Virus record (IMG/VR): IMGVR_UViG_3300022217_000003
Coordinates: 96,001-160,000 of that record
DNA from: a virus
Lineage: Duplodnaviria; Caudoviricetes
Reading direction: 5' to 3' (one strand)
Length of the DNA stretch: 64,000 nucleotides
Each line of letters opens with the position of its first letter. Position 1 is the stretch's first letter. The notes under the pieces are model-generated. The model was not told where the DNA came from. It made no database searches and saw nothing but the letters and a program-made list of their open reading frames with translations. Below, in pieces: positions 13,937 through 64,000 of the stretch. Position numbers and translations under genes: made by a program.

Positions 13937-13937
13937 T

Positions 13938-26312: not shown

Positions 26313-27572
26313 TTAATGCCACACCTCAAGAGCTTTCGCATTATATTCATCTATTTCTTTTGCAACGATATGTTTTATTTCATTATATCTATCTTTGGGT
26401 ATCTTGGGACAAAAATAATTGTATGGGGATTGGTGTGAGAATAGGGCGGAATCATAATTATCATTTATTAATCCCTCTTCAAGACATTCGGTATATAATT
26501 CAGTTCCCTTATATGGTGTAAAGAAACTTAATGTTATCCTGAACGGATTTAGTGACTTAATAAACTTCATTGTTGTCAATATATCTTCTTCTGTTTCTTC
26601 CGGGAATCCTATAATACAGTAAGCCTTCCACTGTATTTTATTCTTGTTTAAAATATCGGCGGCTTTTAAGAAGGTCTCTGTCTTCTCTCCCTTATTTATA
26701 TATTCCAATATGCGGTTAACCCCACTTTCAAGCCCTATGCTCATTTGCTTACACCCGGACTTTTTCATGCACTTAACCATTTCATCTGTTATCACATCAG
26801 CCCTTGTATCACACCGCCAACTGGATCTTAAATTATATTTATCACAAAATTCAAGCAACTTCTTCTTATTTAATGTAAATGTTTCGTCCCAGAATGTAAA
26901 AAAATCTGATTTAAATGCATCTTCAATATATTTCATTTCTCTAATTATTCTATCCACGCTTTTACATGTTACTTTTCTCCCCCAAATATTTGATGAGGAA
27001 CAAAATCTGCAGTTAAAGGGACACCCCCTGGACGACATCACATGGGCATATCCATTGGGAGAATACTTATCTAATAACATATCAAAATCAGGAAATGGCA
27101 ATTCGTCCAAGTCCTGTAACCTGCCCCCATTTGACTCGTATTCCCCTCTAAATACCTCTACATCAGAGGGGTATTCTTCGGGGCTAATGGTGGGATGCGC
27201 CCCACCCACGAACACAGGTATACCAAATTCTTGTTTTGCTATCTTGTAAATTGACATAAATGACTTATATTTTACGTTTAAAACCGTAACTCCTATTTTA
27301 TCAGGTCTCTCTTTTGATATAGTGGCCCTTAATTCATTCCATATGCTATGATTTAGGTCACTTATTCCGTTTATAAACTTATTATAGTTTTCTTGCCTGC
27401 CATCATATCCCTCATAATGTGTCTTTGCGCCTACTTCCATATTCTTTATCTTGACATCATACCCTTCACTTTTCAACTTTGACCCTACTGCTAATAGGGA
27501 TAATGGCACGTAGTCTTGTTGTAGCGTCACGAACCTGTAAAACGGTGGGTTTATTAATAAAACTTTTTTCAC
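26313..27572 (-). CDS. Cobalamin-binding radical SAM protein
   Basis: GGAHPT, SRGCPFNCRFC, GLESG, IIGFPEET, TPYKGT. Confidence 0.9.
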   Translation of the reverse strand: MKKVLLINPPFYRFVTLQQDYVPLSLLAVGSKLKSEGYDVKIKNMEVGAKTHYEGYDGRQENYNKFINGISDLNHSIWNELRATISKERPDKIGVTVLNVKYKSFMSIYKIAKQEFGIPVFVGGAHPTISPEEYPSDVEVFRGEYESNGGRLQDLDELPFPDFDMLLDKYSPNGYAHVMSSRGCPFNCRFCSSSNIWGRKVTCKSVDRIIREMKYIEDAFKSDFFTFWDETFTLNKKKLLEFCDKYNLRSSWRCDTRADVITDEMVKCMKKSGCKQMSIGLESGVNRILEYINKGEKTETFLKAADILNKNKIQWKAYCIIGFPEETEEDILTTMKFIKSLNPFRITLSFFTPYKGTELYTECLEEGLINDNYDSALFSHQSPYNYFCPKIPKDRYNEIKHIVAKEIDEYNAKALEVWH

Positions 27573-35424: not shown

Positions 35425-35614
35425 ATTCTTTATCGTTATACTTTAAAGCCACGTATTGACTCTTGCTTATTAAGCCGAAATCGTCATATAGTTTAATATA
35501 TGCGAATTTACCTAATATGTATATTTGTTCTATCATGCTTTCTTGCTTTTTATTTTTTATGTACCTTTTTGAATTCTTCATCAAATTTCTTTGCTTCCCT
35601 TCTCCACTTATCAA
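35381..35614 (-). CDS. Small hypothetical protein
   Basis: ORF in string; true start probably downstream of the track start. Confidence 0.35.
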   Translation of the reverse strand: MISGEGKQRNLMKNSKRYIKNKKQESMIEQIYILGKFAYIKLYDDFGLISKSQYVALKYNDKEYEFRRLFWRIYIEE

Positions 35615-35918
35615 CAGTTTTCTGCATTTTCTTTTCTAAAAATGTATCCTCAACCTTAATAGGTAGGTCAGGGTTAGCGTATAGGGCATCTTCTATACTT
35701 AATGTCCTAATAGTAACCTTCTGTCCCTTTGATGTATATTTTGCGCCTACAACATTATAATATTTCTTTTTCCAATCCCTTTTTAATTGCTGCAAGCATC
35801 CATCCCAATAAGAAGCTTCTTGATATACAGTAAATATATCTACATTGTCTACGCATACAGGAAGATTCCCACTTGGGTCTGCTTCTTTTAATAATTCTAT
35901 TAGTTTCTTTGTTTTCAT
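35550..35918 (-). CDS. Hypothetical phage protein
   Basis: MKTKKLIELLKEADPSG..., YWDG; tightly packed. Confidence 0.7.
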   Translation of the reverse strand: MKTKKLIELLKEADPSGNLPVCVDNVDIFTVYQEASYWDGCLQQLKRDWKKKYYNVVGAKYTSKGQKVTIRTLSIEDALYANPDLPIKVEDTFLEKKMQKTVDKWRREAKKFDEEFKKVHKK

Positions 35919-45543: not shown

Positions 45544-45606
45544 ATTATATTTCACCTCCTCTCTTTAATAAAATATAGTCGTGGTTAAATAAACATCTAT
45601 TCATAT

Positions 45607-46464
45607 TTATAAACCTCCTATTTGATTTAATATATCTATAGTTTTTTGTTCTCCATATAAGCTCATTAGTATAGCTGTTGCTTCTACTAAATCATTTTCA
45701 TTATTTGCGACTTTTGATATTAATCTTGCTGCCCTATCTGCAGGGACTGTAACCCAAGATAGTTCTACAAAGTTAACCTCTCTGTTGTCTTCATATACAT
45801 CTCTATGTTCACCCTCATGATATATTTTTCTAGCCTTATGGTATTTAATATCATCACAATACTGTGATTCATTGGTAGCCAAATTACCACATATAGAACA
45901 GATAGAATATCCCACGCGACTACCCATTGAAACACTGTCAATATATTTCTTATCAATTGCCCTGACCAGATCTGGGTCTTTATTTGCATCAACCGCCAAT
46001 AAGTTTTCTATAAACCTACCATGATGATTAGCTATACAATCAAGGTTGATTCCAACTGCATTATTCACATTATCACTTGCATGGTCTTTAAAATTACCTC
46101 TACCTATAAAGGTCTGATAAATATATTTATTTAATGCGGCATCAAACCTTAAAAGCTCTGGGCTATTAGGATTATCCATAGAACCCCAGGCAAACATATC
46201 TCCGTTATCATTGGGCACGTCTCCATGCACACTAATAACATGATAGTAATGAAATTCAGGATCGTAATCCCCTATCCTGTGAAACTTATTATCTTGATAA
46301 GCTCTCTTCTCTGCCACCTCTACATAATTAGCCATTACTTTATCATACTTATTCAAGAAGTCATTTTTATTCCCGAATGAATTACTTGCTATTTTAATCT
46401 TGGAATTGCCCTCTCCATACGGAGTTATGGGATCATTCCATGATGCCCTTTTTATCATACTCAT
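45607..46464 (-). CDS. Putative prohead maturation protease with Zn-binding insertion
   Basis: PNDNGD, FKDH (His), DSVSMG (Ser), CSICG...YCD, FVELSWVTVPAD; head-module position. Confidence 0.7.
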   Translation of the reverse strand: MSMIKRASWNDPITPYGEGNSKIKIASNSFGNKNDFLNKYDKVMANYVEVAEKRAYQDNKFHRIGDYDPEFHYYHVISVHGDVPNDNGDMFAWGSMDNPNSPELLRFDAALNKYIYQTFIGRGNFKDHASDNVNNAVGINLDCIANHHGRFIENLLAVDANKDPDLVRAIDKKYIDSVSMGSRVGYSICSICGNLATNESQYCDDIKYHKARKIYHEGEHRDVYEDNREVNFVELSWVTVPADRAARLISKVANNENDLVEATAILMSLYGEQKTIDILNQIGGL

Positions 46465-49168: not shown

Positions 49169-52042
49169 TTATGCGGGTGGCTTAACTTCACCTACTCCGC
49201 CTCCCATTTCTCCTTGACCGGGAGGTAATGGGGTTGTTCCTGCTCCGCCAGGAGCTACCGTTGGAGGCTTTGCTCCACCCCCACCTACACCTGGAGCCCC
49301 TCCTGGGGCAGGAGTAGCAGGCGCAGTGCCTGGTGCAGCCGCAGGCGCACCCGTGGGAGTTACGTTTATACCTGTTTGTGTCTGTATATTCTTTAATTCT
49401 TGGGCTAATTGTATATCTTTCTTGCGTTCTTTCTCAATTAACTTCTCTTCTTTCTCTAAATCCAAGCCCAAATAGGTCAATAATGTCTTCTTACTTATCA
49501 ATCCACGTTGTTGCATGTTCTGATATAGTGTTTTTTGCTGTGCATCATCCTTTAATCTCATTAGTTCCCACTCTATTTCGGGAACTATAAGCTCAGATTC
49601 GCCCTCATCATTAGTTTTATAGAAGCCCTGAACCTTTGCGACAGGTTTATATACATATTCTATGACCCATTCGCTTAATATATCTTGAAATCTTAGATAT
49701 CTATTGACCAATACCTGCAAAGCTACGCTTGCATTGGCAAAAGTAACCCCTTCTGTGGTAATTAAAGCCTTAGATATTCCTAATCCTGACAATATTTCTT
49801 TATCCACAAAGTCTAACTCACTTGTAAGCGGGATAATCTTCCCTGCGGAAGATATATAGTCAAAATTTATATAATTATGCCATATTAACCAACTATTTGG
49901 GTCTGAGCTTGCTTGGTCAAGGGCGTTTGCAACATTCTGAAGCACTGCTTCTGTCGCAGGATGAGTTTCATCCCCTACTTTAACAACTTTTATAGGTCTC
50001 CAATGCCTCTTTGCTATCGCAAACTGCGCCCTGCGTAACATATCTTTGTATATAAGTGCTTTAAAAATACATTTCAATGGACTTACACCATATACTTCAT
50101 ACATAGAATGTTTATTTGCTAGATGGCTTACCTGTGGTATCTCTATTTTTTCATCTCTGCCCTCTGCCACAATTTCAAAGTTACTCAGAGGTACCTTTTG
50201 ATTCTTTGAAACATAAGATCTTATCTGCGGATCAATACTATTATATATTTCAATCGGCTTTTTACTGTTAACTATTCTCTTTAAAGCATCATCGGGATCT
50301 AATTTTATAATTGGGTCTGCGAATATATTAGATTCTATCTCCACATAGTCAGGATTAAGCGTTACGAACTTATCCCATCTCCCTTCATCATCGTCCCAAA
50401 GCCCGAAAGGTATCGCATTTCCAAGCATGTTAAATTCCAAAGAAATAAATCTTAAAATCTGTGGCAATTTTAAAATATCAAATGCTAATTCATCAAAATA
50501 TTTTTGAATTTTCGGATCTTCACAAACATTTCTTAATCCCGTAACAGGAAACTCCGCATTTAAATGTACACCTGTATTAACTATGGGTTCGGTCCTTGTA
50601 TAGTGTCTGGACCACTGGTTACAATTAGCTACAGCAACATTATTTGCCACATAAGAATGTTCGCCCTCTATTGTTAAATTATAAACCTTCCCTTTATATT
50701 CTTCTAATTCAATTCCTTTTATTTCTAATACTATATAATTATTCCATATCCACCTTCTGTGACTATTCCATTTTGATTTATTCTTTATTCCCAATTTGGT
50801 AGCTTCATTATTGTTTATTTCTACATTCCAAGACAAGCTATATCCTGGATCACCTGCAAATCCTGTATCCCTTTCTTCTTTACGGACAATTGACATTATC
50901 TGACACCTTTTAAGTATCTCGTGAATTTGATCTGATAAATCCTTAGATGCGCTACATGTTCTTATATCCCCAGTTTTATCAACATGCCCATCTCCATTTA
51001 TATATGCCTTAACTAATTCAATTTGTAATTCTGGGGGGCAATCCATAACCTGTTGTGATATTCTTTTATAATGAGAATACTCCCCACAATGTTCATAAAA
51101 CAATTCTGCTAATTTCTTACCAGAAGTAGTAACCAAACAAGTATTAACATCTTTTCGTAAATTTATATTAACAGTGGCTCCGAATTCTTTTTCAAGTAAT
51201 TCTTTTACTTCTGCAACATAGGTATCTTTCTCACTGATATTAAAAGAGAACTGCATCCCCCTAAGCACCCCATCTTTTCTTCTATAAAAATTACCCTCTG
51301 CTAAAAAATAACCAAATAATCTCATTATATTTTTATTAATTGGTTTTACCTCTTGCAATTCAAAAACTCTATTGCTTCCAGATTTATATTTATAAACTTC
51401 TATATCAAATAATTTATTTTCAGTGGCTATGGGAGACAACATAAAATCGCCTATTTCCAATTCATCCACCCGAACTTTTTCAACTTTAATCTCTTGGGGA
51501 ACACACCCTTTGTATCTATCTCTACAATGTGCCGTTATATTCTTCTGGCAAAACTTTATTTCATTGCTCTTGTGCCTACAATTTCCCACTTCTTTTTTTA
51601 TACAAAATATCTTGTGATTCCCCGTAATCTCTAATTTGGTCTCTATTGTAGCTAACTTTAACTTATATATATCCTCATCTATCTCATTGATTATAACATC
51701 CTCAACTTGACCCCTATCTCCATTTTTATCTAAAATCCAATCGCCAATTTTAACTTCATCAATCCTCTTTTTTCTTCCATCGCCCATAACTGTTGTTATA
51801 TAAGGAATTATACATTCCCTCAATTTTGTTGGAAGCTGTAAATTAACAGGCTCATAAAGCGGATGAAAATAATCAGGTGATTGTCTATTAACATTAACGG
51901 ATGCATGTTTTATAATTCTTGAAGTGGGCGAGGATTTCTTTGAAGTTACTGAAGATTGATTAAGCGAAGCGGTTCTTTTTAATTCCCTGAAATGTGTTTC
52001 GGGATTATCTCGTATTAACTCAGAGCTGGTTTTTATTGTCAT
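49169..52042 (-). CDS. Portal protein with intein (~560 aa after splicing)
   Basis: Extein motifs EPIVNTGV...EFP, EFNMLGNAIPF, LNPDYVEI, YGVSPLKCIFKALIYKDMLRRAQFAIA, ILSGLGIS; Pro/Gly-rich tail; upstream of the protease, scaffold and capsid genes. Confidence 0.75.
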   Translation of the reverse strand: MTIKTSSELIRDNPETHFRELKRTASLNQSSVTSKKSSPTSRIIKHASVNVNRQSPDYFHPLYEPVNLQLPTKLRECIIPYITTVMGDGRKKRIDEVKIGDWILDKNGDRGQVEDVIINEIDEDIYKLKLATIETKLEITGNHKIFCIKKEVGNCRHKSNEIKFCQKNITAHCRDRYKGCVPQEIKVEKVRVDELEIGDFMLSPIATENKLFDIEVYKYKSGSNRVFELQEVKPINKNIMRLFGYFLAEGNFYRRKDGVLRGMQFSFNISEKDTYVAEVKELLEKEFGATVNINLRKDVNTCLVTTSGKKLAELFYEHCGEYSHYKRISQQVMDCPPELQIELVKAYINGDGHVDKTGDIRTCSASKDLSDQIHEILKRCQIMSIVRKEERDTGFAGDPGYSLSWNVEINNNEATKLGIKNKSKWNSHRRWIWNNYIVLEIKGIELEEYKGKVYNLTIEGEHSYVANNVAVANCNQWSRHYTRTEPIVNTGVHLNAEFPVTGLRNVCEDPKIQKYFDELAFDILKLPQILRFISLEFNMLGNAIPFGLWDDDEGRWDKFVTLNPDYVEIESNIFADPIIKLDPDDALKRIVNSKKPIEIYNSIDPQIRSYVSKNQKVPLSNFEIVAEGRDEKIEIPQVSHLANKHSMYEVYGVSPLKCIFKALIYKDMLRRAQFAIAKRHWRPIKVVKVGDETHPATEAVLQNVANALDQASSDPNSWLIWHNYINFDYISSAGKIIPLTSELDFVDKEILSGLGISKALITTEGVTFANASVALQVLVNRYLRFQDILSEWVIEYVYKPVAKVQGFYKTNDEGESELIVPEIEWELMRLKDDAQQKTLYQNMQQRGLISKKTLLTYLGLDLEKEEKLIEKERKKDIQLAQELKNIQTQTGINVTPTGAPAAAPGTAPATPAPGGAPGVGGGGAKPPTVAPGGAGTTPLPPGQGEMGGGVGEVKPPA
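50624..51814 (-). mobile_element. Intein (397 aa) with LAGLIDADG endonuclease in the portal gene
   Basis: LRE|CIIPYITTVMGDG...ITGNHKI...LFGYFLAEG...LVKAYINGDG...VYNLTIEGEHSYVANNVAVAN|CNQW (Cys1, Asn-end, Cys+1). Confidence 0.93.
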
Positions 52043-52866: not shown

Positions 52867-53067
52867 CTATCTAGTTTGTATTTGTCTGGCCATATCATTA
52901 TAGTCCGACACTTCCTGTTCATCATAAAGATAACCTGTATCATTCTGGCTCATTATAGGTTGCTTATTTGTTTTTTCAGTCTTTAACTTGCGCGGGTTCA
53001 CATAATCCCTCTCTTGTCTTATTGGATTTGGAACATCTGCTTGTTTTAATATTATTACTTTATTCAT
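52867..53067 (-). CDS. Small protein with MNKVIILKQA leader
   Basis: Shared leader; AAGGA RBS. Confidence 0.65.
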   Translation of the reverse strand: MNKVIILKQADVPNPIRQERDYVNPRKLKTEKTNKQPIMSQNDTGYLYDEQEVSDYNDMARQIQTR

Positions 53068-53079
53068 ATCTATGAGTCC

Positions 53080-53523
53080 TTAATAGCCGATAGCCTGTCC
53101 TGAGCTTGTGCCGGTGTCATATGATTTATCTGTGCCTTGTCCTGTAAAATCTTGCCTTCCACCCATACCATCCCAATTTAATTCTTGTAGACCATCGGGT
53201 TCATTTCTGAATCTTCGCCGATGCTTCTGCCTAAAGGGTTTGTCTTTAGGTTCTTTATTAAACATATCTATATTCTGATCGTTTTCTAATGGATATAAAT
53301 TGTCTGCTCTTTTTAATATTATTATTTTATTTTTGCACTCAACGCATATCTCGCCATCAGGGGTATCAAAAATGGCTACATTAGAATCCATTTCCTTTAT
53401 AATGCCTCTGTGCTTTTCTCCCAATAAATTCTCTGTTTCTATATAATCACCTACCCCAATTAACAAATTGCCCTCATCGTCCCTTACCTTGGTAGCTTCT
53501 TTTAGTATTATTACTTTATCCAT
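53080..53523 (-). CDS. Protein with MDKVIILKEA leader and internal NKIIILKRA repeat
   Basis: Shared leader at the start and again mid-protein. Confidence 0.7.
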   Translation of the reverse strand: MDKVIILKEATKVRDDEGNLLIGVGDYIETENLLGEKHRGIIKEMDSNVAIFDTPDGEICVECKNKIIILKRADNLYPLENDQNIDMFNKEPKDKPFRQKHRRRFRNEPDGLQELNWDGMGGRQDFTGQGTDKSYDTGTSSGQAIGY

Positions 53524-53766
53524 TTATTTATCTTCGCAATCCTCTTCTTTAATATCAAATATTTTATCCGATCCATCCCCATCCCATCCAAAAGATTTTG
53601 TATAATCTTTATCATCGGGATCAACCAATATTTCAAAGCTATGCCCTGCATTTCCTATTCCTTTTATATATTCTAATAACTCAATCAAATTTTTATCTGT
53701 ATCTTTTACAGTAAGGGTATACTTTTTTCTACCTGACTTAGCTTTTCTTATTATTACTTTATCCAT
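53524..53766 (-). CDS. Small protein with MDKVIIRKA leader
   Basis: Start moved from 53886 to the leader ATG at 53766; the upstream part is occupied by another ORF. Confidence 0.65.
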   Translation of the reverse strand: MDKVIIRKAKSGRKKYTLTVKDTDKNLIELLEYIKGIGNAGHSFEILVDPDDKDYTKSFGWDGDGSDKIFDIKEEDCEDK

Positions 53767-53767
53767 A

Positions 53768-53935
53768 CTAATCTTCCCATTTCCATTCAAAAGAACCATC
53801 ACCTTGTTCAACCAAGGTCTTTGTTGGCTCTCTGAGTCCTTGCTCTTTAGCTCTACCAAGTGCCCCATCGCAGTTACATTTATCATAGGGCTTATTACAA
53901 TGATTACAAACTATTACAGAATCCCCACTATGCAT
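53768..53935 (-). CDS. Small Cys-rich protein, 55 aa (not in ORF track)
   Basis: MHSGDSVIVCNHCNKPYDKCNCDG...WKWED; stop 1 nt before the next ATG. Confidence 0.5.
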   Translation of the reverse strand: MHSGDSVIVCNHCNKPYDKCNCDGALGRAKEQGLREPTKTLVEQGDGSFEWKWED

Positions 53936-54091
53936 AAACGTCTACCAAACCTCCTAAGCCTAATCCTATTGCCAATCCTAATATTTGATTGTCCACTTTT
54001 GGTGTACATTTGTCCTCTAATTGTGTACAAGGTTGTACATCTTTGTGTAAAGATTCATACATATCTGTTCGGTATTGCAAACAAATGTTTT

Positions 54092-54562
54092 CTATTGCGA
54101 ACATATTGGCACCTTATATAATTCAAAATGCGGGCTATCATCAAAACTCTGGTCAATTAATATTTCCTGATCTCTATCCCAATTTCCGCCCCACCTTATT
54201 AAGTGTTCTATTTTATTTTCGTTATATAGTCTTTGCGCTGTGCTTGTTATAACTCCTGAGACTAAGCAAAGATTGTTTAAATCATACGCAAGTTCCTTGT
54301 GTCCTGGTATATATATGTATATATCAAATGCCAAAGACACGGGTTCTTTAACATGCATTGCCCTTTTTAATTCTTCAGGGATGCGTGGATCAAGAGTTGA
54401 ACTTCCTTCCAGGAAATATTCAAGTTGTTTTTTAAAAGTTCTCTTGCCTTCTCTTATACCGAAATCAACCGGGCTTACCTTAATTGATTCTTCGGCTATT
54501 ATTATCAAATCATCGTGGCAAGTATACAAATTTTTCCTTGACCGTTTCCCAAATTTAAACAT
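54092..54562 (-). CDS. Endolysin, peptidase M15 family (L-Ala-D-Glu endopeptidase-like)
   Basis: FKFGKRS..NL, DFGIREGKRT, H...SLAFDI, IRWGGNWD, FDDSPHFEL. Confidence 0.88.
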   Translation of the reverse strand: MFKFGKRSRKNLYTCHDDLIIIAEESIKVSPVDFGIREGKRTFKKQLEYFLEGSSTLDPRIPEELKRAMHVKEPVSLAFDIYIYIPGHKELAYDLNNLCLVSGVITSTAQRLYNENKIEHLIRWGGNWDRDQEILIDQSFDDSPHFELYKVPICSQ

Positions 54563-54563
54563 A

Positions 54564-54803
54564 TTATTTCTTCCCCTTTTGGTTTAAACCTATTACTTCC
54601 GCTCCCTTTTTAAAGGTCGTCCCTAATACATATGCGCCAATAATAAAATCTACTATTGGAGTAAATACTTTCAGCATATGTGCACAAGAATCAGTTAAGT
54701 ATGGTATGAATGCGCCTACTAATGCCATAAGGCAAACAGTTACCACAATAACAAAAGCGGCGACGACCCCTTTTATCCAATATATATTATTATAAGCTTT
54801 CAA
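54564..54803 (-). CDS. Putative holin
   Basis: 79 aa, two hydrophobic helices, basic C-terminus, immediately upstream of the endolysin. Confidence 0.55.
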   Translation of the reverse strand: MKAYNNIYWIKGVVAAFVIVVTVCLMALVGAFIPYLTDSCAHMLKVFTPIVDFIIGAYVLGTTFKKGAEVIGLNQKGKK

Positions 54804-54996
54804 TTGCGTCTTCTATAACAATAACTACCTTTTCACATACCTTAACAGACAGGTATTCCTGCAGAGAAGGATAAATATATTTCTTTACCATTTTTCTAAG
54901 ATGTCTTTTGAGTATAGGTTTTATCATATTGTCCCACTTGGCTTTAATGTTTTCTTTACTGAAAAAAACTTTAATTTCACTGATAAGATTACCCAT
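54790..54996 (-). CDS. Small hypothetical protein in lysis cassette
   Basis: 68 aa, AAGGAG RBS. Confidence 0.6.
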   Translation of the reverse strand: MGNLISEIKVFFSKENIKAKWDNMIKPILKRHLRKMVKKYIYPSLQEYLSVKVCEKVVIVIEDAIESL

Positions 54997-55015
54997 AAAA
55001 TTAATACTCCTTTAA

Positions 55016-58000
55016 TTAAATTAACGGCTCCATACTTGAGGGTTTGTATTTTTTATCTTTGTATTTGTTTCTATTCATGGCTACTTGTCCTGGGCTTACT
55101 TTTTCTTTTTTACCATCTACTTCTACTTCGTAGTATGAATGTGTCCCACTTTCACCATTTGCTTTTTTATCAAGGTCTATAACTTCTCCGCTTGCAGTTA
55201 TTTCTTCTGTGGCAATATCCTCAACCTTACCTATTCTATCTCTAATCGCTTCTTGAATTTGCGAAGGTATTTCATTTTCTTCTATCTTTCTACCAAGATC
55301 CTCTATGGCTATTGCGCCTACATCACCGAGAAATTGATTAAATCCCTGTGGAGACATAGCATTTTCACTCATGCCATAAGCATCCTCACCTATTAACACC
55401 GTATATCTATCAAAGGATTCTCCTTCGTTGTCATATACTTTAACCTCAGACACATCTCCTTGATTATCATACCCCATATCTTCTTCTAGCTTATGCATAA
55501 CTAAACTAATATCCCTTGCGTCCATTCCTTGTTCAAGACCTTGTTGTTCTATCTCTTCTTTACCCCATCCATATTCCTTTGCCTGGTTTACAAGATCATC
55601 CATAGCACTGAAATCTTCTGGTGTAACCGCAGCTACTGCCCCTCTGCCCTGATGCTTATAATGAAAATCCATTATGTTTATTACTTCATCAGGATCAATA
55701 TCAACTCCGCCACCCCTTCTATATATAGCTATCTCATCACTATCTGCATATGGTTCAAGTATGTATTCATCTTCATCAAGATCTAGTGTCTTTAGTATTT
55801 CACTATCATCATAAGATATTATTTCTTCTCCATCATCGTAGATGGTCCAAACGCTTCCTCCGTAAGTATCTGAGTAACCTGAGTATAATTCAGCTTTTTT
55901 TTTTAATGATGCGTGTTTCTTATCATACGAATCCGTTCCCTTAAATACAGTTTTGCCTCCACCTCTATCAGTAAAATAATCTGACAATTCTTTCTTATCC
56001 TCCTTGCTCATAGCCTTCATCTCTTTTTCTGAGAAGGCATGAACACATGTGGCACATTTATAATATGCTCCACCCACTCCTGATTCAAAATAAGCGCAGT
56101 CTCTGCATTTGTTTACGTCATTCGGTCTACCATTCTTGGCTATCTTAGTTGTGCCATTGCCGAAAGAATATTCTTTATCAAATCTACTTGCGGTAATGGT
56201 AACTATGGATTCATCTTCTTTCTTTATCCGGACAACACTATTGTTAGAACCTGTTATGATTCCTTCTGATTTATCTTTCTTTGATATGACATCTTCGCCA
56301 ACAATATTATTACTTGCGAATGCCATGCCTTCATCTTCTATTCCTTCTGATAGTGCTACATCTAATTCATTGAGCTCTTCATCAGAACCGGCGAAGAGGT
56401 TGACTATGTTATTAAACTGTTCTATTATCCAATCTAATACACCTGCTTCTTTATGGAATGATGCGAGCGTCTGTCTCTGTTTTGTTTCAGGATATACAGC
56501 AGCCGTTTCAGCCACTGTCTTTGATTCATAAGATAATAGATCCCTGACATGATTGACTTTCTCTTCCATCTTGTCACCATAGTCAATTATCATTCTTGAC
56601 AATACTTCATCTGATTTTATCTTAGCAGGATCTGTCTGATTATATCTATCTAAATGAGCAACGAGTATATCTTTAAACTTCCTTACCTCGCCCATTGGTA
56701 TAGTGCTTATTACATCTAGTTTTAATGACTCTTGTAATTTCGCAAGGTCTTCTCTGAGATTTGATTTCTCTGTCTGAAGGGGTTCTTGCTTTTGCTTCAT
56801 CTTCAATTGAAGTTGCTGTATCTTTTCCTGTATCTTTGCGGACTCCTTCTTTGCCTGTGCATCTATCTCTTGTATCCTAGACTCCAATGCTTCTAAGTCC
56901 TGTAACTCTTTCTGTATTGTTTCTGATACAAGATTAGGAATTACCTCACCCTTCTGTGGAGCAGGGGCAAATGACGGTCTTATCTTTTGTTTAATAAGAC
57001 TTGGCTCTAATCTCTCTGGGGATTCCTGTGGGTTATTATCATCTTCTATAGCTACTTCTGCTTCTTTATTTAAAGATGCTTCTTTCTGTGGTTGCATCAT
57101 ATTAGTTTCTTCTACAAAATTTGCCCAGGCTTCTAATGGTGTTAATTTTTCTTCTGGATCATATTGTTCTCTAAATTTTTCAGATACTTCAAATGGTATA
57201 TCCTTCATTGTCTTCACTATTTCAAAAGACTCTTGGGGCGTTCCTTGTGTAGCTATTTCTCTAAATTCTTGAAATAGATCTGCTATCTTATTTAAGGATG
57301 CTTCTTTCCCTAATGATTCTAATACAGGCATAAATATTGCTTTGGCTTCTTCTAAAGAAGTAGAGTATATATAGAAGTTTATATCATTGGGATATGATTC
57401 GGATGGGTCTGTGGTAAATAATTTACCTGCGCCAACACTGTGTAATTGTTTTATTATTTCATCAGGGTTATCCCCTTCGTCCAACTCTATAGTAAAATTA
57501 AATTTACCCACAGGGTTCTCATCATATAGTCTTGCGGCTTCTTTTTTCTTGTCATCATCCTTCGGGGCCTTCCCGTATTCTTTTCCTTCTCTTCCCCTTA
57601 TCTCATCTTTCTTGGCATCGGATAGATCGCTCCATATTGCGCCTACTGTTTTATCTACTTGATCACTATCATAATCTGGATTGTCTTTCTTCACCTTCTC
57701 TGTTTTCTCACCCCACCACTTCTTTGGGGGCTTTAAACTGGAGTCGGATTCCTTCTTCGCCCTCTGCGTTATATTCCCATCGACATCTTTCTCCTGCTTA
57801 CGCATATCCTTTTTAAGTTCCTGCTCACTCTTTACCATTTCCTGAACTTCTTCTTTTTGTGGGTCTTTGTCTTTCTTATAAACAGTCTGCTTTACTCGGA
57901 GGTTTTTCTCCTGCTCATCTTGCTTGGGAACAGAGGTCTTCATACTATCTAACAGATTGGCATCTACGGTTGAATTCATCTGCATTTCGGATGTCTGTAT

Positions 58001-58588
58001 CTGATCTTGGGCTTTAATCCTTTTGCCTATCTTCATATTCTTCTGGTCTTTTATCCAACTATGTATCGCCCTTCTTATTTTATTGGTCTGATTACCCTTT
58101 ATCTTTAATTTCTTTTTATCTATATACTCAGATAACTTCTCGAACTCTTTTGAATCCAAAATATAGTTTTCTTCTTTTTCAACAGAGGCTACTATTGAGG
58201 TGAAGTCATTACTGATCTGGGCATTTGTTTTCCTGTCATAATTAGGCTTTGTGTTACCAAAATTAGTAACAAGGTTGCCCACTGCATAAAATCCTGAGCG
58301 TTCAACAACAGGAATAGTATTTTTCTGTATCAACCCACTGTTTCTATAAACATCTTTCGTGGCACTGTCTACTTCTGTCATTAATATAGTGCCTACTACT
58401 TTGCCTATATCTGATTCTTTACCACTTGATAAGGCTTTTTTGACAAGCTCTTCTTGTTTCTCGCTCAATTTAATACCAGTCTTATTTAGATATTCAGACA
58501 ACCGCTTATCTTCTGTTGAAGCCGTCTTGGTCATTCCACCAAGTGTATTGTCTGTAAACTCCTTTAACCAATTTGCCATCTTTATCAT
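55016..58588 (-). CDS. Large acidic multi-module protein (putative internal head polyprotein)
   Basis: 1190 aa; unrelated segments separated by KEASLNKIA, KEASLNKEA, LASFHKEA, KHASLKKKA; AAGGAG RBS. Confidence 0.75.
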   Translation of the reverse strand: MIKMANWLKEFTDNTLGGMTKTASTEDKRLSEYLNKTGIKLSEKQEELVKKALSSGKESDIGKVVGTILMTEVDSATKDVYRNSGLIQKNTIPVVERSGFYAVGNLVTNFGNTKPNYDRKTNAQISNDFTSIVASVEKEENYILDSKEFEKLSEYIDKKKLKIKGNQTNKIRRAIHSWIKDQKNMKIGKRIKAQDQIQTSEMQMNSTVDANLLDSMKTSVPKQDEQEKNLRVKQTVYKKDKDPQKEEVQEMVKSEQELKKDMRKQEKDVDGNITQRAKKESDSSLKPPKKWWGEKTEKVKKDNPDYDSDQVDKTVGAIWSDLSDAKKDEIRGREGKEYGKAPKDDDKKKEAARLYDENPVGKFNFTIELDEGDNPDEIIKQLHSVGAGKLFTTDPSESYPNDINFYIYSTSLEEAKAIFMPVLESLGKEASLNKIADLFQEFREIATQGTPQESFEIVKTMKDIPFEVSEKFREQYDPEEKLTPLEAWANFVEETNMMQPQKEASLNKEAEVAIEDDNNPQESPERLEPSLIKQKIRPSFAPAPQKGEVIPNLVSETIQKELQDLEALESRIQEIDAQAKKESAKIQEKIQQLQLKMKQKQEPLQTEKSNLREDLAKLQESLKLDVISTIPMGEVRKFKDILVAHLDRYNQTDPAKIKSDEVLSRMIIDYGDKMEEKVNHVRDLLSYESKTVAETAAVYPETKQRQTLASFHKEAGVLDWIIEQFNNIVNLFAGSDEELNELDVALSEGIEDEGMAFASNNIVGEDVISKKDKSEGIITGSNNSVVRIKKEDESIVTITASRFDKEYSFGNGTTKIAKNGRPNDVNKCRDCAYFESGVGGAYYKCATCVHAFSEKEMKAMSKEDKKELSDYFTDRGGGKTVFKGTDSYDKKHASLKKKAELYSGYSDTYGGSVWTIYDDGEEIISYDDSEILKTLDLDEDEYILEPYADSDEIAIYRRGGGVDIDPDEVINIMDFHYKHQGRGAVAAVTPEDFSAMDDLVNQAKEYGWGKEEIEQQGLEQGMDARDISLVMHKLEEDMGYDNQGDVSEVKVYDNEGESFDRYTVLIGEDAYGMSENAMSPQGFNQFLGDVGAIAIEDLGRKIEENEIPSQIQEAIRDRIGKVEDIATEEITASGEVIDLDKKANGESGTHSYYEVEVDGKKEKVSPGQVAMNRNKYKDKKYKPSSMEPLI

Positions 58589-58617
58589 TTGTATTTACTC
58601 TCCTTATTTATTTCTCT

Positions 58618-58857
58618 CTATGGTAATGGGCCAGATATGGATTTATCACTATCGCCAAAGCTGGTCGATCGATTATATGATTCCCCTGTATCGTCTCCAC
58701 CTATTTGATCTCTATCCCAAAAGGGTGTCTTTGTATTGCCCTTTTCGTTCTCTCTCTTCTGTGGACCTGTAGTCCAATAGTAATCTCTTTTATAATTATC
58801 CCCATGACTCTTGGGGTCTGTGCTTATGTTCTCTGCTAGTATTATTACTTTGTCCAT
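58618..58857 (-). CDS. Small protein with MDKVIILAE leader
   Basis: Shared leader. Confidence 0.65.
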   Translation of the reverse strand: MDKVIILAENISTDPKSHGDNYKRDYYWTTGPQKRENEKGNTKTPFWDRDQIGGDDTGESYNRSTSFGDSDKSISGPLP

Positions 58858-58859
58858 AT

Positions 58860-59102
58860 TTATTCGCCGTATTCCATACGTGCATCTCTAGCATCTTGTA
58901 ATGCATCAAAAGCCTTATCGAGTTCTATTTTTTCTTGGGGAGTTAACTTCTCACCATTTTCTATTTTCGTTCTATAGTGGAATACTATATTCCAAAAATG
59001 ATCTTCATTTCTTTTTAGCCATTCTCTAGTAGATTCAGATTCACTTCTCTCTAATGCAGGATTACTACCAAGATATGCTTTTCTAATAATGACTTTATCC
59101 AC
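58860..59102 (-). CDS. Small protein with (GTG)DKVIIRKA leader
   Basis: Shared leader. Confidence 0.65.
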   Translation of the reverse strand: MDKVIIRKAYLGSNPALERSESESTREWLKRNEDHFWNIVFHYRTKIENGEKLTPQEKIELDKAFDALQDARDARMEYGE

Positions 59103-59436
59103 TTGTTAACTCTTCTATTGGATCATACGCTATTCTATCTTCTATACTTTCAACTACTGTATTATAATCAGCACTATCTTCTGCAAAATCACCCACGTTA
59201 AATACATCTATTTCCTGTCCATCTTCTGTAAATATATTAATCTGATGTCCGCCATACCATGCATATATAAATCCGCCATTTGGATCATGCTTGACGTATT
59301 TTGCACCATCAAGTTGTTCGCCTAAGGATGCTTTTTTATCTATAGCCTGAACAACACCTGTAGCCTCCTTAAATAACTTCTCGTTTTCTGCAAACTTATC
59401 AAGCCACTCTGAGTGTTTATCTTTCTTGTGTATCAT
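59095..59436 (-). CDS. Small protein with WLDKF...KEA/KKAS leader and a domain shared with 59451-60257
   Basis: LDGAKY...IYAWYGGHQINIFTEDGQEID; AGGAG RBS. Confidence 0.7.
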   Translation of the reverse strand: MIHKKDKHSEWLDKFAENEKLFKEATGVVQAIDKKASLGEQLDGAKYVKHDPNGGFIYAWYGGHQINIFTEDGQEIDVFNVGDFAEDSADYNTVVESIEDRIAYDPIEELTSG

Positions 59437-59450
59437 AATTTATTATTCTC

Positions 59451-60257
59451 CTATACCGCTTCGTATTCATCAACTGTAACCCAGTTGTTATCTATATATT
59501 TTTCTACTGTTACCTGGTTATTATACGGCATACCGTCTTCTACTGTCATTCTTGAGAGCCAAACCCTTGTATCTTCATCTTCGTATTTAAGATTGTCTGT
59601 TTGACCTTGGGATATTGTAGGCATTTCAAGAAGCTCCCTAAGTGACCATTCTTCGTAGCCTTCGTAATCTTCTTCCTCGTAATCTTCTATAATTATATTA
59701 TCTTCTTCTAAAGGATAATCAGCCTTCTTCTTCAACTTCAACTTATCGCATATATGAGCTTCTACTTCTTCCAGAGTAGCTTCGGGTCTTTCCTCACTTC
59801 CAATAACATCGCAATCGACTTCTTCGCCATTCTCATCCATGGCATATACATTATGCCCGCCGAAGAATGCGTATGTGAGATTATTGTTTTTGTCTTTATA
59901 AGAATATCTTGCGCCCTTCAACCATATTGGGTTTGCTTCTTTAACTACTTCTGGCTGTGCATCAAACTCCTGATTATTAATTATAACTTTGTCCATTGAT
60001 TTACTCTCTCCTTTATGCTTTAATCTTCTTTCCATTTCTGGGAGTCCTTTTTTGTCGTCATAATAATCAGGCATATTCTCGCCCTCTGTATGGTCTCTTG
60101 CAATAGACTCCGCCATATCTCCCATTGACATATCAAGCTTATTGTCCTGCTTGATGTCTTTCTTTATTTTATTATAAGTAGGTCTGTGTTCCATCTCTAT
60201 TTTCTTACCCACTTCTAATTCATTATTCTCTGCTTTATTTATTATTACCTTATCCAT
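59451..60257 (-). CDS. Multi-module protein with two MDKVII leaders
   Basis: MDKVIINKAE at the start; internal MDKVIINNQE at ATG 59996 with AAAGGAG RBS. Confidence 0.75.
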   Translation of the reverse strand: MDKVIINKAENNELEVGKKIEMEHRPTYNKIKKDIKQDNKLDMSMGDMAESIARDHTEGENMPDYYDDKKGLPEMERRLKHKGESKSMDKVIINNQEFDAQPEVVKEANPIWLKGARYSYKDKNNNLTYAFFGGHNVYAMDENGEEVDCDVIGSEERPEATLEEVEAHICDKLKLKKKADYPLEEDNIIIEDYEEEDYEGYEEWSLRELLEMPTISQGQTDNLKYEDEDTRVWLSRMTVEDGMPYNNQVTVEKYIDNNWVTVDEYEAV

Positions 60258-60260
60258 GAT

Positions 60261-62249
60261 TTATACTGCCATCTCTGTCTGACTATAATAGTCAGATAAG
60301 AATAAGGCTATATCATCTGGTTCTATGGGCAATCTATTCTCCTGTGCAAAATCAGTTATAACCTCAGTGGCATCTTCACGGGAGAAGGCATACTTATTAA
60401 AGTGTTCTTCTGAGAAGCCGAGTGATTGTATATAACTATCTACTTCTTCCTGCCATACATTCTTCCATGGATCATCACCTATTACCTGGCCTTGTTTCAT
60501 TTCTACCAAGTCCATTAGTATGCTTCTTATTCCGCCTACTGTTTGGGTTGTTGCTTTTTTATTTAAAGAAGCTTCTTTTCCTATTTTAAAGCCACTTGGA
60601 ATATATTGGTATAAATCAGATGCCCCTTTATTAACAAGGGAAGAAAGCCAATGTCTCATAAACATATACAGCGTATCTCTTCCTCTGTCACCAGAAGCAT
60701 TTAGTTTTTTTCTAAAATCTTCATTAGCTTCATATATACTTCTTGCCCTATCGGCTAATGTATCTATGTACCCATCTCTCATTTCATATACAGATTCATA
60801 TAATTCTTCAGGAACAAATGACATAAATTCATCATATACTGTTTCGGCTACAATCTCTGGCATTAAAGCAGTTTCATCTTCCATGTCTGCTTCTTTATTT
60901 AAAGAGGCTTCTTTGTCAGATTCCTTTTCATTGTCATCATCTTCTTTATCCTCGGATGGCTCTTCTTTTTTGTCATCCTTTTCTTTATCTTTATCATCTT
61001 TGTCTTTATCTTTATCTTTTGATTTAGACTTCTTGCCTGAGAAGTTTTCTAATTGCTCTTGTCTCTTCTTCGCTTCTTCCTCAGTATCATAAGTGCCCAT
61101 ATTCTTTCCGTTTTTAGATTGAACTTGATATCTGCCATCTACCTCTACTATCTTTGCTTTTTTATTTAAACCTGCGACTGCTTTATGCTTAGTAACATAT
61201 TCATATACTTCTTGTGGTGTGTTAGCAAACTTTCTCCCTAAGATAGATACCCTACCTTCGGGATCTACTATACGCCATCCATAAGCCTCGCCACCTTCCG
61301 TTATATGATATCCATTAATATCTTCTGCTTCCTTATCCAAAGAAGCTTTCTTCTTTGACCAATTATCATCTTCATCTTTCTTCCCGAAGTCTTTCTCTGA
61401 GCCATATGGTTTTTGTTCATTGCCCCATTGTCCTGCGCTTGTTTCATTTGGTCCCTGTGTGAGATACTTGGTAGGGACACACTTGCCGCCTATTTGTTTT
61501 ACATTCTCCACGGGAGTTTTCCATAACTTACAATACGTCTTTCCGGCTATACCATTTGGAATCCTATGTTCCAATGCATCCTGGGCATTCCCTATATACA
61601 CCTGGTGTGTACATGAGGATCTTAATTCATCTGGTATGGTCTCGTCCTTCTTTGCGTTCTTTACAAAGGCAACTATTATCTTATCTGATAAATCATTGAA
61701 GGATACTTTATAATCCTTATCCTCATCTAGTCCCTCATATGCCAATTCATCTTTTGCCTCTTCTAATATATTCTCATCTTCTGTGGATAATACATACGTA
61801 TCATCATCTAACTCTCTGGCTATCTTTGTATTACCTAATACAGAATTGAACTTATCTAATTTATCTGATTCATCTATTTCATTTTGTCGTTCATGCACGA
61901 CATTTTCTTCATCCTTACTATCGCCAACCTGATCTATTTCCATAGCTTTCCGGATAGAGGATACGACATTATCATTGAGCCAAACTCTATTGTTTAACTT
62001 ATCTTCCGCCCTCTGTAGATTAACAATATAGATTCCATCCTGTTCTGTATCAGATACTATCTCTTCTTCATTGAGTGCATGAACTATCATTTTCGGCACA
62101 TCTACATTAATATTGCCGATCTTGATATCCTTCTGATACATTATGTGGTTCTTCGCTTCCTTTGTCATATGTTCAAAGGAATATGCACATAACATTTCAA
62201 GCTCATAATCTGATAATTTAGATGCGAATTTCTTTAATTCAGCTTTCAT
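60261..62249 (-). CDS. Large acidic multi-module protein (putative internal head polyprotein)
   Basis: Segments separated by KKASLDKEA, VAGLNKKA, KEASLNKEA, KEASLNKKA; start trimmed to ATG 62249 (GGAGG RBS). Confidence 0.75.
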   Translation of the reverse strand: MKAELKKFASKLSDYELEMLCAYSFEHMTKEAKNHIMYQKDIKIGNINVDVPKMIVHALNEEEIVSDTEQDGIYIVNLQRAEDKLNNRVWLNDNVVSSIRKAMEIDQVGDSKDEENVVHERQNEIDESDKLDKFNSVLGNTKIARELDDDTYVLSTEDENILEEAKDELAYEGLDEDKDYKVSFNDLSDKIIVAFVKNAKKDETIPDELRSSCTHQVYIGNAQDALEHRIPNGIAGKTYCKLWKTPVENVKQIGGKCVPTKYLTQGPNETSAGQWGNEQKPYGSEKDFGKKDEDDNWSKKKASLDKEAEDINGYHITEGGEAYGWRIVDPEGRVSILGRKFANTPQEVYEYVTKHKAVAGLNKKAKIVEVDGRYQVQSKNGKNMGTYDTEEEAKKRQEQLENFSGKKSKSKDKDKDKDDKDKEKDDKKEEPSEDKEDDDNEKESDKEASLNKEADMEDETALMPEIVAETVYDEFMSFVPEELYESVYEMRDGYIDTLADRARSIYEANEDFRKKLNASGDRGRDTLYMFMRHWLSSLVNKGASDLYQYIPSGFKIGKEASLNKKATTQTVGGIRSILMDLVEMKQGQVIGDDPWKNVWQEEVDSYIQSLGFSEEHFNKYAFSREDATEVITDFAQENRLPIEPDDIALFLSDYYSQTEMAV

Positions 62250-62254
62250 TATTC

Positions 62255-64000
62255 TTATCCTCCAAGTCCGTGGCCAGACCATTCACTGGGGTCTGCATTT
62301 AATTTACTATCTCCATGGAACTCTCTGGCATTTTGCCCATCACCAACATTGGTATTCTCGTCCATGGTCTTTTTATCATACCTCATTGTTTTCTTTTTAT
62401 TATATTCTTTTCCGCCCCAAGGTTTTTTGTCTTGGTCTTCTGCCTTAACTATCTTATCTGCATACTTATTAAGTATGGCATCTGCCTTCTTATTTAAATC
62501 ATTCATTATTACTTCCGAGTCTTTATTTAATAGCATATGTGATATGATTCTTTTGAATGCTTTATAATCAGATGGTTCCATTACGTTAGATGCCAAGGAT
62601 TCCAATACAGATTCATTACCTAAATCTTGATTTTTTATTTTCCAATATCCATCCGCCCATTCAAGATCTTCTATATCACCTAATTTCTCATATTCGGTTT
62701 CTACTTGTTCGCCATATACATCTTCAATTTTATCAACAGTAACCAATCCGTCATACCCTATATATCTGATTTCATCACCTATTTCTGGTATTAGTTTATT
62801 TTCAGCTTTCTTCTTCATTCTTTTATTAGAAGAAGCTTCTTTTTCTTCTAATGTAGAAAATGGTGCTTCGCAATCACATTCTTCTCCCGTGTATTGAGTA
62901 TTCCCTGATTCGTCTTTTCTTATTGTGAATCTCTTTCCGCATTCATCACACTCCGCTAAATATTCCTTACTCGCTGCCTTCTTATCCATTCTTTTATTAC
63001 CAGAAGAAGCCAATACAGTAACTAATTGTTCTGCCCCTTCTAAAGGAGCGAGATTATAATCCTGTCCTGTTATGGCATTAATGAGTTCTTGTTTATATGT
63101 TCCCTCATTTGGCCTGCCCTGTATCTGTTCTTGGTATACTCTCTGTAACCATGCCTGTGCGTTCTCTATACCAGAGGCTAAGGCGTTCTTCAGGTTATTC
63201 CATATGGTTCTTACCCAATCTTCCAACTCGGCCATTGCGGCTTCTCTGTTCTTTATCTGTGTAAAAGCCTTCTTTGTCTTGAACTCCATGTAAGTAGTAT
63301 TGGTGGCTTTCATAATATCCACAGGGGGAGTTAATCTATTTAACTTACGCAAGTCCTTGTCCCATAATATACCGATTAGGTCTGGATATACATCAACAAC
63401 CTTTCCTGCCGATCCTTCTTTTACCGTATATCCATCTTCATACTCTGCGGTCTTTATACTGAATACTCTATCTGATATATTGTAACTTGCTTGTGGCTGA
63501 GGTACAGGAGGAGCAGGTTGTTTTGCCTGATTAACAGGAGGAATAATACTATTAACTGGTGGTGGTCCCGCAGGTAATTGTCCTGCGGGTGCTTTAGGCT
63601 TCCCCCATGGTTGAGGTTTCGGTGCAGGAGCTACGGGTGTAGGCTTCGTGCCAGGCTGTGGTGCTGCTCCGGGCGCACCAGGCACAGGTTTTGCCCCAGG
63701 TGCCGGTACATTCTGCTTGGTTTCCAGTGATGGTGTAACCATACCGAAGTCACCTAAGTCTACCTTCAATCCTAACTCTTTAAACTTATTAAGCTTTTCG
63801 GCAAAGAACTCTACGTCCTTCTTATCAAACGCAGCCATTTCTTCTGCGTCAAAGTCCTGTGCCTTAAACCTTAATATCTCTTTATTGCCTTTATTGATAA
63901 CAACATCACCATCGAACTTTATCTTGATGCCCTTATCTTCTTTGGGAGGCTTAGGTTCTGTATCTTCGCCCTCTTCTTTATTAACAGGTTCGGGCTTATC
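62255..64000 (-). CDS. Large multi-module protein, 5' end outside window
   Basis: Frame is open from 64000 through the track ATG at 63838; Pro/Ala-rich linker; ASSGNKRMDKKA and KEASSNKRMKKKA repeats flank a CDEC..CDC zinc module. Confidence 0.75.
   Translation of the reverse strand, partial: DKPEPVNKEEGEDTEPKPPKEDKGIKIKFDGDVVINKGNKEILRFKAQDFDAEEMAAFDKKDVEFFAEKLNKFKELGLKVDLGDFGMVTPSLETKQNVPAPGAKPVPGAPGAAPQPGTKPTPVAPAPKPQPWGKPKAPAGQLPAGPPPVNSIIPPVNQAKQPAPPVPQPQASYNISDRVFSIKTAEYEDGYTVKEGSAGKVVDVYPDLIGILWDKDLRKLNRLTPPVDIMKATNTTYMEFKTKKAFTQIKNREAAMAELEDWVRTIWNNLKNALASGIENAQAWLQRVYQEQIQGRPNEGTYKQELINAITGQDYNLAPLEGAEQLVTVLASSGNKRMDKKAASKEYLAECDECGKRFTIRKDESGNTQYTGEECDCEAPFSTLEEKEASSNKRMKKKAENKLIPEIGDEIRYIGYDGLVTVDKIEDVYGEQVETEYEKLGDIEDLEWADGYWKIKNQDLGNESVLESLASNVMEPSDYKAFKRIISHMLLNKDSEVIMNDLNKKADAILNKYADKIVKAEDQDKKPWGGKEYNKKKTMRYDKKTMDENTNVGDGQNAREFHGDSKLNADPSEWSGHGLGG

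Follow-up and report, generated by a model that had tools for sequence, protein, structure and literature searches.

A short leader shared by unrelated head-module proteins of a phage-G-like virus is a candidate capsid-targeting propeptide

Why do six genes of one virus, whose products appear otherwise unrelated, open with nearly the same residues, M-[DN]-K-V-I-I? We studied this leader in a stretch of 64,000 nucleotides (the window), which comprises bases 96001-160000 of one 175,779-bp viral genome record (IMGVR_UViG_3300022217_000003; CheckV completeness 77%); the part that holds the leader genes, window 52867-60257, is part of the head module. In phage T4, the internal proteins IPI, IPII, IPIII and Alt carry a capsid-targeting sequence (CTS) that is removed by the protease gp21 (reviewed in PMC9026906), and the original prediction for this DNA took the leader for a portable tag of that kind. 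We propose that the leader may be a T4-like capsid-targeting propeptide, in which MDKVII-x-K would be the address and K-x-A the site where the prohead protease removes it, and we give this reading about an even chance (roughly 0.5). Cutting at K-x-A, packaging of the proteins and their loading by the MDKVII block are all three deduced from sequence.

A six-frame scan of the genome (33% G+C, with nearly every gene on the minus strand) for the pattern [DN]K[VI]II returned 10 matches, 9 of them on the coding strand. Eight of these nine lie at window 53064-60254, 0.8-8.2 kb upstream of the portal gene, on the minus strand and in frame; six stand at gene starts and two within longer open reading frames (ORFs). 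All six gene starts of the original prediction (53067, 53523, 53766, 58857, 59102 and 60257) were found in place. From amino-acid composition, 0.74 copies would be expected proteome-wide and 0.004 at residue 2 of the 294 called proteins. At the DNA level, the 9 matches compare with 0.82 +/- 0.94, and none of 100 dinucleotide-preserving shuffles reached 9. The genes that carry the leader are the following (lengths in amino acids, aa; window coordinates except for the last):

52867..53067, minus strand: 66-aa gene, MNKVIILKQA, with an acidic hydrophilic body
53080..53523, minus strand: 147-aa gene, MDKVIILKEA, with a second copy, NKIIILKRA, inside
53524..53766, minus strand: 80-aa gene, MDKVIIRKA
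58618..58857, minus strand: 79-aa gene, MDKVIILAE
58860..59102, minus strand: 80-aa gene with a GTG start, (M)DKVIIRKA
59451..60257, minus strand: 268-aa ORF of three modules, MDKVIINKA, with phrog_37997 as its C-terminal module
genome G000:C1:85934-86101, minus strand: 54-aa Cys-rich ORF, MDKVIITKA, the ninth copy, about 9.9 kb before the window start

The true start of the 80-aa MDKVIIRKA gene is 53766, as an ORF extended to 53886 would overlap the upstream gene, which stops 1 nucleotide before the 53766 ATG. The GTG start at 59102 overlaps the stop codon of the gene upstream (GTGGATAA), an arrangement that suggests translational coupling. The CxxC module of the 54-aa ORF resembles modules within a 1190-aa head polyprotein and within P0161, a 1117-aa protein. 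Far from the portal-proximal cluster, at window 35550-35918 on the minus strand, a 122-aa gene begins MKTKKLIELLKEA↓D (the arrow marks a putative cut, here and below), which looks like a variant leader sharing the L-K-E-A ending.

Is the leader portable, as originally predicted? Retrieving relatives from viral contigs by their portals required an alignment of homologues, a single-protein query having come back empty. L050 and L052 (portals 51-56% identical to that of the phage under study) have MNKVIIKKA and MDKVIMKKS genes, L035 (portal 59%) has MDRVIMRNA, and in L036 (portal 56%) a DKVIIKKY gene starts with TTG. The bodies behind the MDKVIM leader of L050 and the MDRVIM leader of L035 have no homologue in the genome under study; the leader thus sits on different bodies in related phages, which bears out its portability. 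A wider scan of IMG/VR for ATG-D-K-V-I-I-x-K gave 34 single matches with never more than one per contig, a result consistent with chance.

The bodies behind the leader had been described as otherwise unrelated, and our comparisons agree. In 36 pairwise local alignments of the nine leader-stripped bodies, every pair stayed below z = 4 against shuffles (best z = 3.1), and an all-against-all BLASTP found the bodies unrelated, except that the middle module of the 268-aa ORF resembles a neighbouring 113-aa gene:

59095..59436, minus strand: 113-aa gene that lacks the MDKVII block and is paralogous to the middle module of the 268-aa ORF

This 113-aa gene begins with 36 residues that include three K-x-A sites and run up to the conserved domain, with KKA↓SL at their end, and its orthologue in L050 begins MDQVEIKKG. 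Searches of the leader proteins against Pfam and PHROGs gave no match besides phrog_37997, which covers residues 203-267 of the 268-aa ORF (window 59451-59660), a 65-residue C-terminal domain. More than 500 homologues of that domain were found at E <= 1e-3, most of them leaderless, either as stand-alone proteins of about 70 aa or at the ends of proteins of up to 1826 aa. An exhaustive homologue search with the 268-aa protein was swamped by this common domain, and a tblastn search with the same protein against cultured phages found no match. The 147-aa protein matched only itself in a homologue search, and an ESM Atlas look-up of the 80-aa protein returned nothing informative.

We aligned 15 copies of the leader, the nine from the genome under study and six from relatives. 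Positions 1-6 (M-D-K-V-I-I) and 8 (K) carry 3.3-4.0 bits each, more than the Ala position, and position 7 is free. The small residue that follows the block is Ala at position 9 or 10 in 9 of the 15 copies and Ser or Gly in 3 others. On this alignment, the leader is a conserved block, M-D-K-V-I-I-x-K, followed by Lys-(x)-small, and because the block is better conserved than the Ala position we read it as more than a bare protease site. The original observation that the leader usually ends in Ala holds for the nine copies of the genome: seven have K-(x)-A at positions 8-10, the copy at 58857 has Ala at position 8 without Lys, and that at 59996 has neither nearby.

The two recurrences noted inside longer ORFs (53331 and 59996) are both present, but only the first appears to be truly internal. 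The copy at 59996 (MDKVIINNQE) has an ATG with AAAGGAGAG 9 nucleotides upstream, the strongest ribosome-binding site among the copies. Similarly, the "internal" copy of L050 (L050:7947) and that of L052 are preceded by AAAGGAG or a near match, 8 nucleotides and an ATG, and the "internal" copy L036:3299 has AAGGA and a TTG start. The copies at 59996, L050:7947 and L036:3299 are therefore probably nested or unrecognised gene starts, and since these copies within longer ORFs have a start codon and a Shine-Dalgarno sequence, the leader tends toward a free N terminus. Only two copies, 53331 and L035:1535, are without a start codon. The first, NKIIILKRA (codons 53305-53331), lies at the junction of the two modules of the 147-aa protein; in L035, the orthologue of the 79-aa gene is contained within a 466-aa ORF, after NDRVVMSKG.

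We then asked how the end of the leader relates to the other proteins of the head region, taken as those encoded at genome 139,000-165,600, with expectations from shuffling each protein and the remainder of the proteome (44,000 residues) for comparison. The motif hydrophobic-x-K-x-A occurs 42 times in the head region against 11.1 +/- 3.2 expected, and 38 times in the remainder against 42.3; for K-x-A-S, the counts are 18 against 3.0 and 9 against 9.4. K-x-A falls within the first 14 residues of 8 of 32 head-region proteins versus 10 of 219 others (odds ratio 7, p = 5e-4). Short starts of the M-x-x-K-x-A type are found in the prohead protease (MSMIKRA↓SW), the 1190-aa protein (MIKMA↓NW) and a 366-aa protein (MMNYKKA↓S), and the same motif recurs between the modules of large proteins:

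55016..58588, minus strand: 1190-aa modular protein, starting MIKMA↓NW, with K-E-A-S-L-N-K-x-A linkers between its modules
60261..62282, minus strand: 673-aa modular protein with four linkers of the K-x-A-S-L-[ND]-K-x-A type
62255..64000, minus strand: modular protein, 616 aa in the window and continuing past the window end, with K-x-A sites, starting M-F-L-K-G-S-S-L-R-I-K-R-A↓E

The K-E-A-S-L-N-K-x-A linker of these giant upstream proteins recurs, in the form K-x-A-S-L-[NK]-K-x-A, in L035, L038, L050 and the more distant L043.

To see what becomes of such a boundary when its context changes, we followed the first module of the 268-aa ORF, marked by I-E-M-E-H, through seven contexts:

phage under study: MDKVIINKA↓ENNELEVGKKIEMEH
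L038: ...SIIALKQKQA↓ETPTEIEMEH
L037: ...SYKKA↓DILPENSKVEIEMEH
L046: ...EKRA↓DIDAPTKIELEH
P0161 (1117-aa protein): ...ANFKKKA↓DEKTDLERGKKIEKEH
L050 (1396-aa protein): ...GLKRKA↓MDEDDIEQGTKIEKEH
P0169: ...SIFERIA↓VSKEENQVGHKIELEH

The junction Ala stands 10-15 residues before I-E-[ML/K]-E-H in all seven, with Lys at P2 or P3 in six. What precedes this Ala is either a gene start or another polyprotein module, and the Ala is kept either way, so the leader holds the position of a polyprotein linker. Likewise, the second module of the 147-aa protein follows the internal NKIIILKRA here and is a separate gene, MNKVIIKKA, in L050. Judged by these junctions, the leader is the form that a K-x-A boundary grammar, which joins polyprotein modules, takes at the N terminus. 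In this respect the original prediction has to be corrected: the leader is not a free-standing tag but part of a grammar that also joins the modules of neighbouring polyproteins.

The spacing of the genes touches on the same point. Two runs of neighbouring genes share a frame, interrupted by one TAA each time: one run consists of the 80-aa, 147-aa and 66-aa leader genes (52867-53766), the other of the 673-aa modular protein and the 268-aa leader ORF (59451-62282). The 66-aa gene lies in the frame of its upstream gene with one TAA and four codons between them, and the 673-aa protein ends one TAA and one codon from the MDKVIINKA gene, again in the same frame. This spacing suggests that gain or loss of a stop codon could readily interconvert a polyprotein and separate genes.

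The head module contains the following genes:

49169-52042, minus strand: portal gene with an intein (phrog_16240, E 3e-53)
45607-46464, minus strand: head-maturation (prohead) protease, 285 aa (phrog_18299)
43399-45555: scaffold-like protein, 718 aa

The best named relative of the protease is gp19 of Bacillus phage G (39% identity), and the portal is 40% identical to the phage G portal, gp14. The portal has an N-terminal site, IIKHA↓S, that relatives retain in their portals as L-[IVL]-K-x-A↓S. At window 54092-54996, a lysis-type cassette lies amid the putative cargo genes; its members are an endolysin (phrog_465, E 3.5e-28), a membrane protein of 79 aa and an ORF of 68 aa, and the K-x-A motif is absent from it.

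By sequence, the protease found no match among solved structures, either as a single sequence or as a profile; comparison of folds did match. An AlphaFold model built from an alignment (mean predicted local distance difference test, pLDDT, 81.8) superposes on T4 gp21 (5JBL; VIA Z 12.2, root-mean-square deviation 2.9 A, 148 of 164 residues), and the next matches are several herpesvirus proteases (Z 5-6). The modelled protease accordingly has the gp21/assemblin fold. In an alignment of 32 homologues (40-75% identity), His128 and Ser179 are invariant. Also invariant is Ala253, in L-L-E-K-V-A (L-I-S-K-V-A in the phage under study), which directly follows the catalytic domain and is succeeded by a variable helical tail; the Ala7 of the N-terminal M-x-x-K-x-A is near-invariant, and the phage under study has a further site of the K-x-A type, IKIA↓S. 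Segment 241-255 of the model, which includes K-V-A, falls below a pLDDT of 50, as expected for an exposed linker. Prohead proteases of the gp21 fold process their own termini, and in T4 the N-terminal propeptides that gp21 cuts from head proteins are 7-65 residues long (PMC9026906). From the enrichment of K-x-A in head proteins, the invariant sites that flank the protease and the module junctions, we infer that K-x-A is probably the protease's own cut motif, with cutting after a small residue preceded by Lys, as its conservation indicates. Four Cys (C-x-x-C ... C) are also invariant in the protease family, in the part from the catalytic Ser to the C-terminal linker, and suggest a zinc site that T4 gp21 does not have, and some homologues carry an extra Cys-rich N-terminal insertion.

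A mechanism can be proposed from these elements. The block M-D-K-V-I-I-x-K would act as an address that holds a newly made protein on the core of the assembling prohead, docking on scaffold proteins or, alternatively, in the substrate groove of the protease, itself part of that core and not yet active. The small residue after the block (K-x-Ala, sometimes Ser or Gly) would be P1 of the cut site of the gp21/assemblin-fold protease which, once activated, would clip off 8-10 residues and release the protein within the head. Because the K-x-A boundary is shared, a module could travel either as a bead of a polyprotein or as its own gene with a leader.

Several observations weigh against this capsid-targeting reading. 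All but one of the nine bodies are acidic (pI 4.1-5.6) and strongly hydrophilic, unlike the basic internal proteins of T4, so that the "cargo for injection" of the original prediction becomes an assumption. The ninth copy sits in the tail module, between tail-assembly-chaperone-like and tape-measure-like genes. Two relatives, L037 and L038 (portals 47-51% identical), lack MDKVII at any gene start over 50 and 116 kb, respectively, and their head proteins start MM[IYL]KT[AG] instead. Folding the 147-aa protein from its sequence alone gave no usable model (pLDDT 44). Furthermore, the truly internal copies (NKIIILKRA, and NDRVVMSKG in L035) fit a linker or cleavage role at least equally well, and several orthologous junctions keep K-x-A alone and have lost V-I-I, which makes V-I-I dispensable for the use of that module.

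These last points belong to the main rival, in which the leader is a cleavage site only. The protease would then recognise it as the P-side sequence of each gene's first module boundary, with prohead loading dependent on something else in each protein; or the small acidic proteins would be core or scaffold filler that is degraded and not delivered. Because the K-x-A grammar joins polyprotein modules as well, this explanation stays alive, and we consider it possible if somewhat unlikely. It accounts for the leader's place at polyprotein-linker positions in orthologues, and for the protease, the 1190-aa and the 366-aa proteins, which start with much shorter M-x-x-K-x-A peptides. Herpesvirus proteases bind their substrates as extended strands, and if the assemblin-type fold does so here, hydrophobic residues at P4-P6 would be plausible. 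On the other hand, the best-conserved residues of the leader are P9-P4 (M-D-K-V-I-I) and not P3-P1, and the copies at 58857 and 59996 keep MDKVII without a nearby K-x-A. The polyprotein linkers, moreover, have another upstream sequence (E-A-S-L-N), from which it appears that the protease does not need V-I-I. For these reasons we prefer the capsid-targeting reading.

A second rival, which we judge improbable, sees in the leader an N-terminal strand kept by descent or by shared structure, for instance as a first beta-strand or as an oligomerisation or docking strand for an extra-capsid partner, without any role in sorting or processing. V-I-I-L has a strong tendency to form strands, and the model of the 147-aa protein shows its two copies of the leader as strands, with low confidence; in L038 and L046, T-V-I-L-L-K-K-A follows a Y-V-R-T-A-G-N-N turn inside the protein in a hairpin-like arrangement. 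However, the bodies have no detectable similarity to one another, and several are predicted to be disordered or hydrophilic, hence offering no sheet that such a strand could join. A strand of this kind would also not explain why the leader is linked to the K-x-A grammar and the head module.

Far less credible still is a leader of the kind found on ribosomally synthesised and post-translationally modified peptides (RiPPs), which a modifying radical S-adenosylmethionine (radical-SAM) enzyme would recognise. The genome does have six radical-SAM genes, among them four B12-binding class-B paralogues of 419-504 aa:

window 11103-12485, minus strand: B12-binding class-B radical-SAM gene
window 12482-13981, minus strand: B12-binding class-B radical-SAM gene
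window 21471-22985, minus strand: B12-binding class-B radical-SAM gene
window 26313-27572, minus strand: B12-binding class-B radical-SAM gene
genome 53584-54096: further radical-SAM gene
genome 32346-32627: further radical-SAM gene

These genes lie 25-40 kb away in a region that resembles sugar enzymes, and we rejected a radical-SAM leader since no such enzyme adjoins the leader genes. A SPASM domain was not detected in the four that were checked, and the leader genes of L050 and L035 lie beside the portal with no radical-SAM enzyme in the 20 kb seen. Six radical-SAM genes are in themselves an unusual load for a phage, and four of them are set among apparent sugar-modifying enzymes.

Finally, is it the peptide or the DNA that is conserved? 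DNA-level conservation without synonymous variation, which had been named as a point that would speak against the original prediction, is not what we found. Upstream of the start codons the DNA is not conserved, and synonymous variants occur at every codon of the block. The Asp, Lys and Val codons of the leader follow genome usage, and the Ile codon ATA is slightly over-used (15 of 18 versus 58%, p = 0.02). L035, a relative with 49.5% G+C, writes its MDRVIMRNA as ATG GAC AGG GTG ATT ATG CGA AAT GCG. Given the synonymous variation and the different codons of this GC-rich relative, selection acts on the leader peptide and not on the DNA, as far as codons can tell. A nucleic-acid signal, whether an AT-rich region for translation initiation or a short site of recombination by which gene cassettes are shuffled, could draw on the ATA excess, on the 12-mer AAAGTAATAATA that is identical in 5 of the 8 window copies and on the weak Shine-Dalgarno sequences of most leader genes, which abut the previous stop codon, but we rejected it as scarcely conceivable in view of this variation, the GC-rich relative and the start-less copies at 53331 and L035:1535. 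A secretion signal or lipobox was rejected as well, as neither a hydrophobic core nor a Cys follows the leader.

Does the capsid-targeting principle extend to phage G? There, MKRLI-x-K-[A/S/G] starts six proteins with unrelated bodies, namely gp13, gp17 (with a TTG start), gp38 and three ORFs, and the reversed pattern has 1 match against these 6. The copies are located as follows:

JN638751.1, 11795-12061
JN638751.1, 15913-16227
JN638751.1, 28076-28591
record position 73330
record position 446709
record position 179190, minus strand

The head proteins of phage G are rich in K-x-A↓S, including L-E-K-V-A↓S after the protease domain. A limited literature search found neither a published description of the MKRLI leader nor published cleavage data for phage G. 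Like the leader described here, that of phage G has the form M-x-[KR]-[VL]-I-x-K-small and stands on diverse proteins, with gp13, gp17 and gp38 near the head genes; unlike it, the phage G leader has other residues, and its copies are scattered over a 498-kb genome. We tentatively suggest, while holding it rather doubtful, that the phage-G head lineage uses a portable two-part head-loading tag, M-x-[KR]-[VL]-I-x-K-small, which would dock as a strand on the prohead core or the protease zymogen and be cut off after the small residue in the manner of herpesviruses, the grammar leaving modules free to pass between polyproteins and stand-alone genes. If this is true, the capsid-targeting principle of T4 recurs far from T4, in the lineage of the largest cultured phage, with unrelated sequence and another protease specificity. 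It would also provide a sequence rule to predict which unknown phage proteins ride within the head, and explain how sets of cargo are reshuffled, with a module now a bead of a polyprotein and now a gene of its own. As phage G can be grown, the leader idea is testable there.

How does the proposed leader compare with other known systems? The cargo-loading peptides of encapsulins are likewise short and portable and sort unrelated cargo into a shell of the HK97 fold; they differ in being usually C-terminal and uncleaved and in having a known binding pocket on the shell protein. Herpesvirus assemblins have maturation and release sites of the form [V/L]-x-Ala↓Ser. They share with the present system the protease fold class, the P1 Ala deduced here, often with Ser at P1', and a putative cut site between the protease domain and a C-terminal scaffold-binding part; what differs is the Lys at P3/P2, the hallmark here, the bacterial host of this virus, and the cut itself, which here is read from sequence. 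To our knowledge, none of the characterised phage relatives of the gp21/assemblin-fold protease cuts after a small residue, and the proposed Lys-x-Ala specificity, if true, would be the first phage case of the Ala-type cut of herpesvirus assemblin.

In phages phiKZ, 201phi2-1 and SPN3US, the prohead protease cuts after S/A/G-x-E or A-x-E (PMC10052503, PMC5694885). As here, many head and ejection proteins of these phages have N-terminal propeptides in which protease motifs are repeated, and their protease is a gp21 homologue; unlike here, the propeptides are long and not common to unrelated proteins, and no CTS has been defined. Their P1 is Glu, versus the Ala proposed for the present phage.

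The closest comparison is with T4, whose capsid-targeting sequence of internal proteins was reportedly the subject of work by Mullaney and Black in 1996. The T4 propeptide has 10-19 residues, of which the first ten suffice for incorporation, with the targeting determinants at its N terminus and the processing determinants at its end; internal proteins whose mature parts are unrelated have it in common, and which proteins belong to this group varies among related phages (PMC9026906). The leader described here resembles it as a candidate propeptide of about ten residues on unrelated mature parts, with a putative targeting and a putative processing part, a protease of the gp21 fold and a varying set of tagged genes. 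It differs in having no similarity to MKTYQEFIAE, in ending Lys-x-Ala (or Ser/Gly) where T4 ends [L/I]-x-Glu, in its acidic bodies, which are basic in T4, and in a K-x-A grammar that also builds polyproteins. The phage, too, is of another kind, a phage-G-like lineage whose capsid protein is small and of the HK97 type and which has a separate scaffold as well as a decoration protein. The T4 analogy of the original prediction accordingly finds agreement in anatomy, in the gp21-fold protease, in the head-module genes and in portability, and none in sequence: the leader, by its residues, is not a member of the T4 CTS family and would at most work like one. What would be new relative to T4, on this analogy, is a CTS-like leader with another sequence, a putative Ala-type cut and a polyprotein linker grammar, in another lineage of phages.

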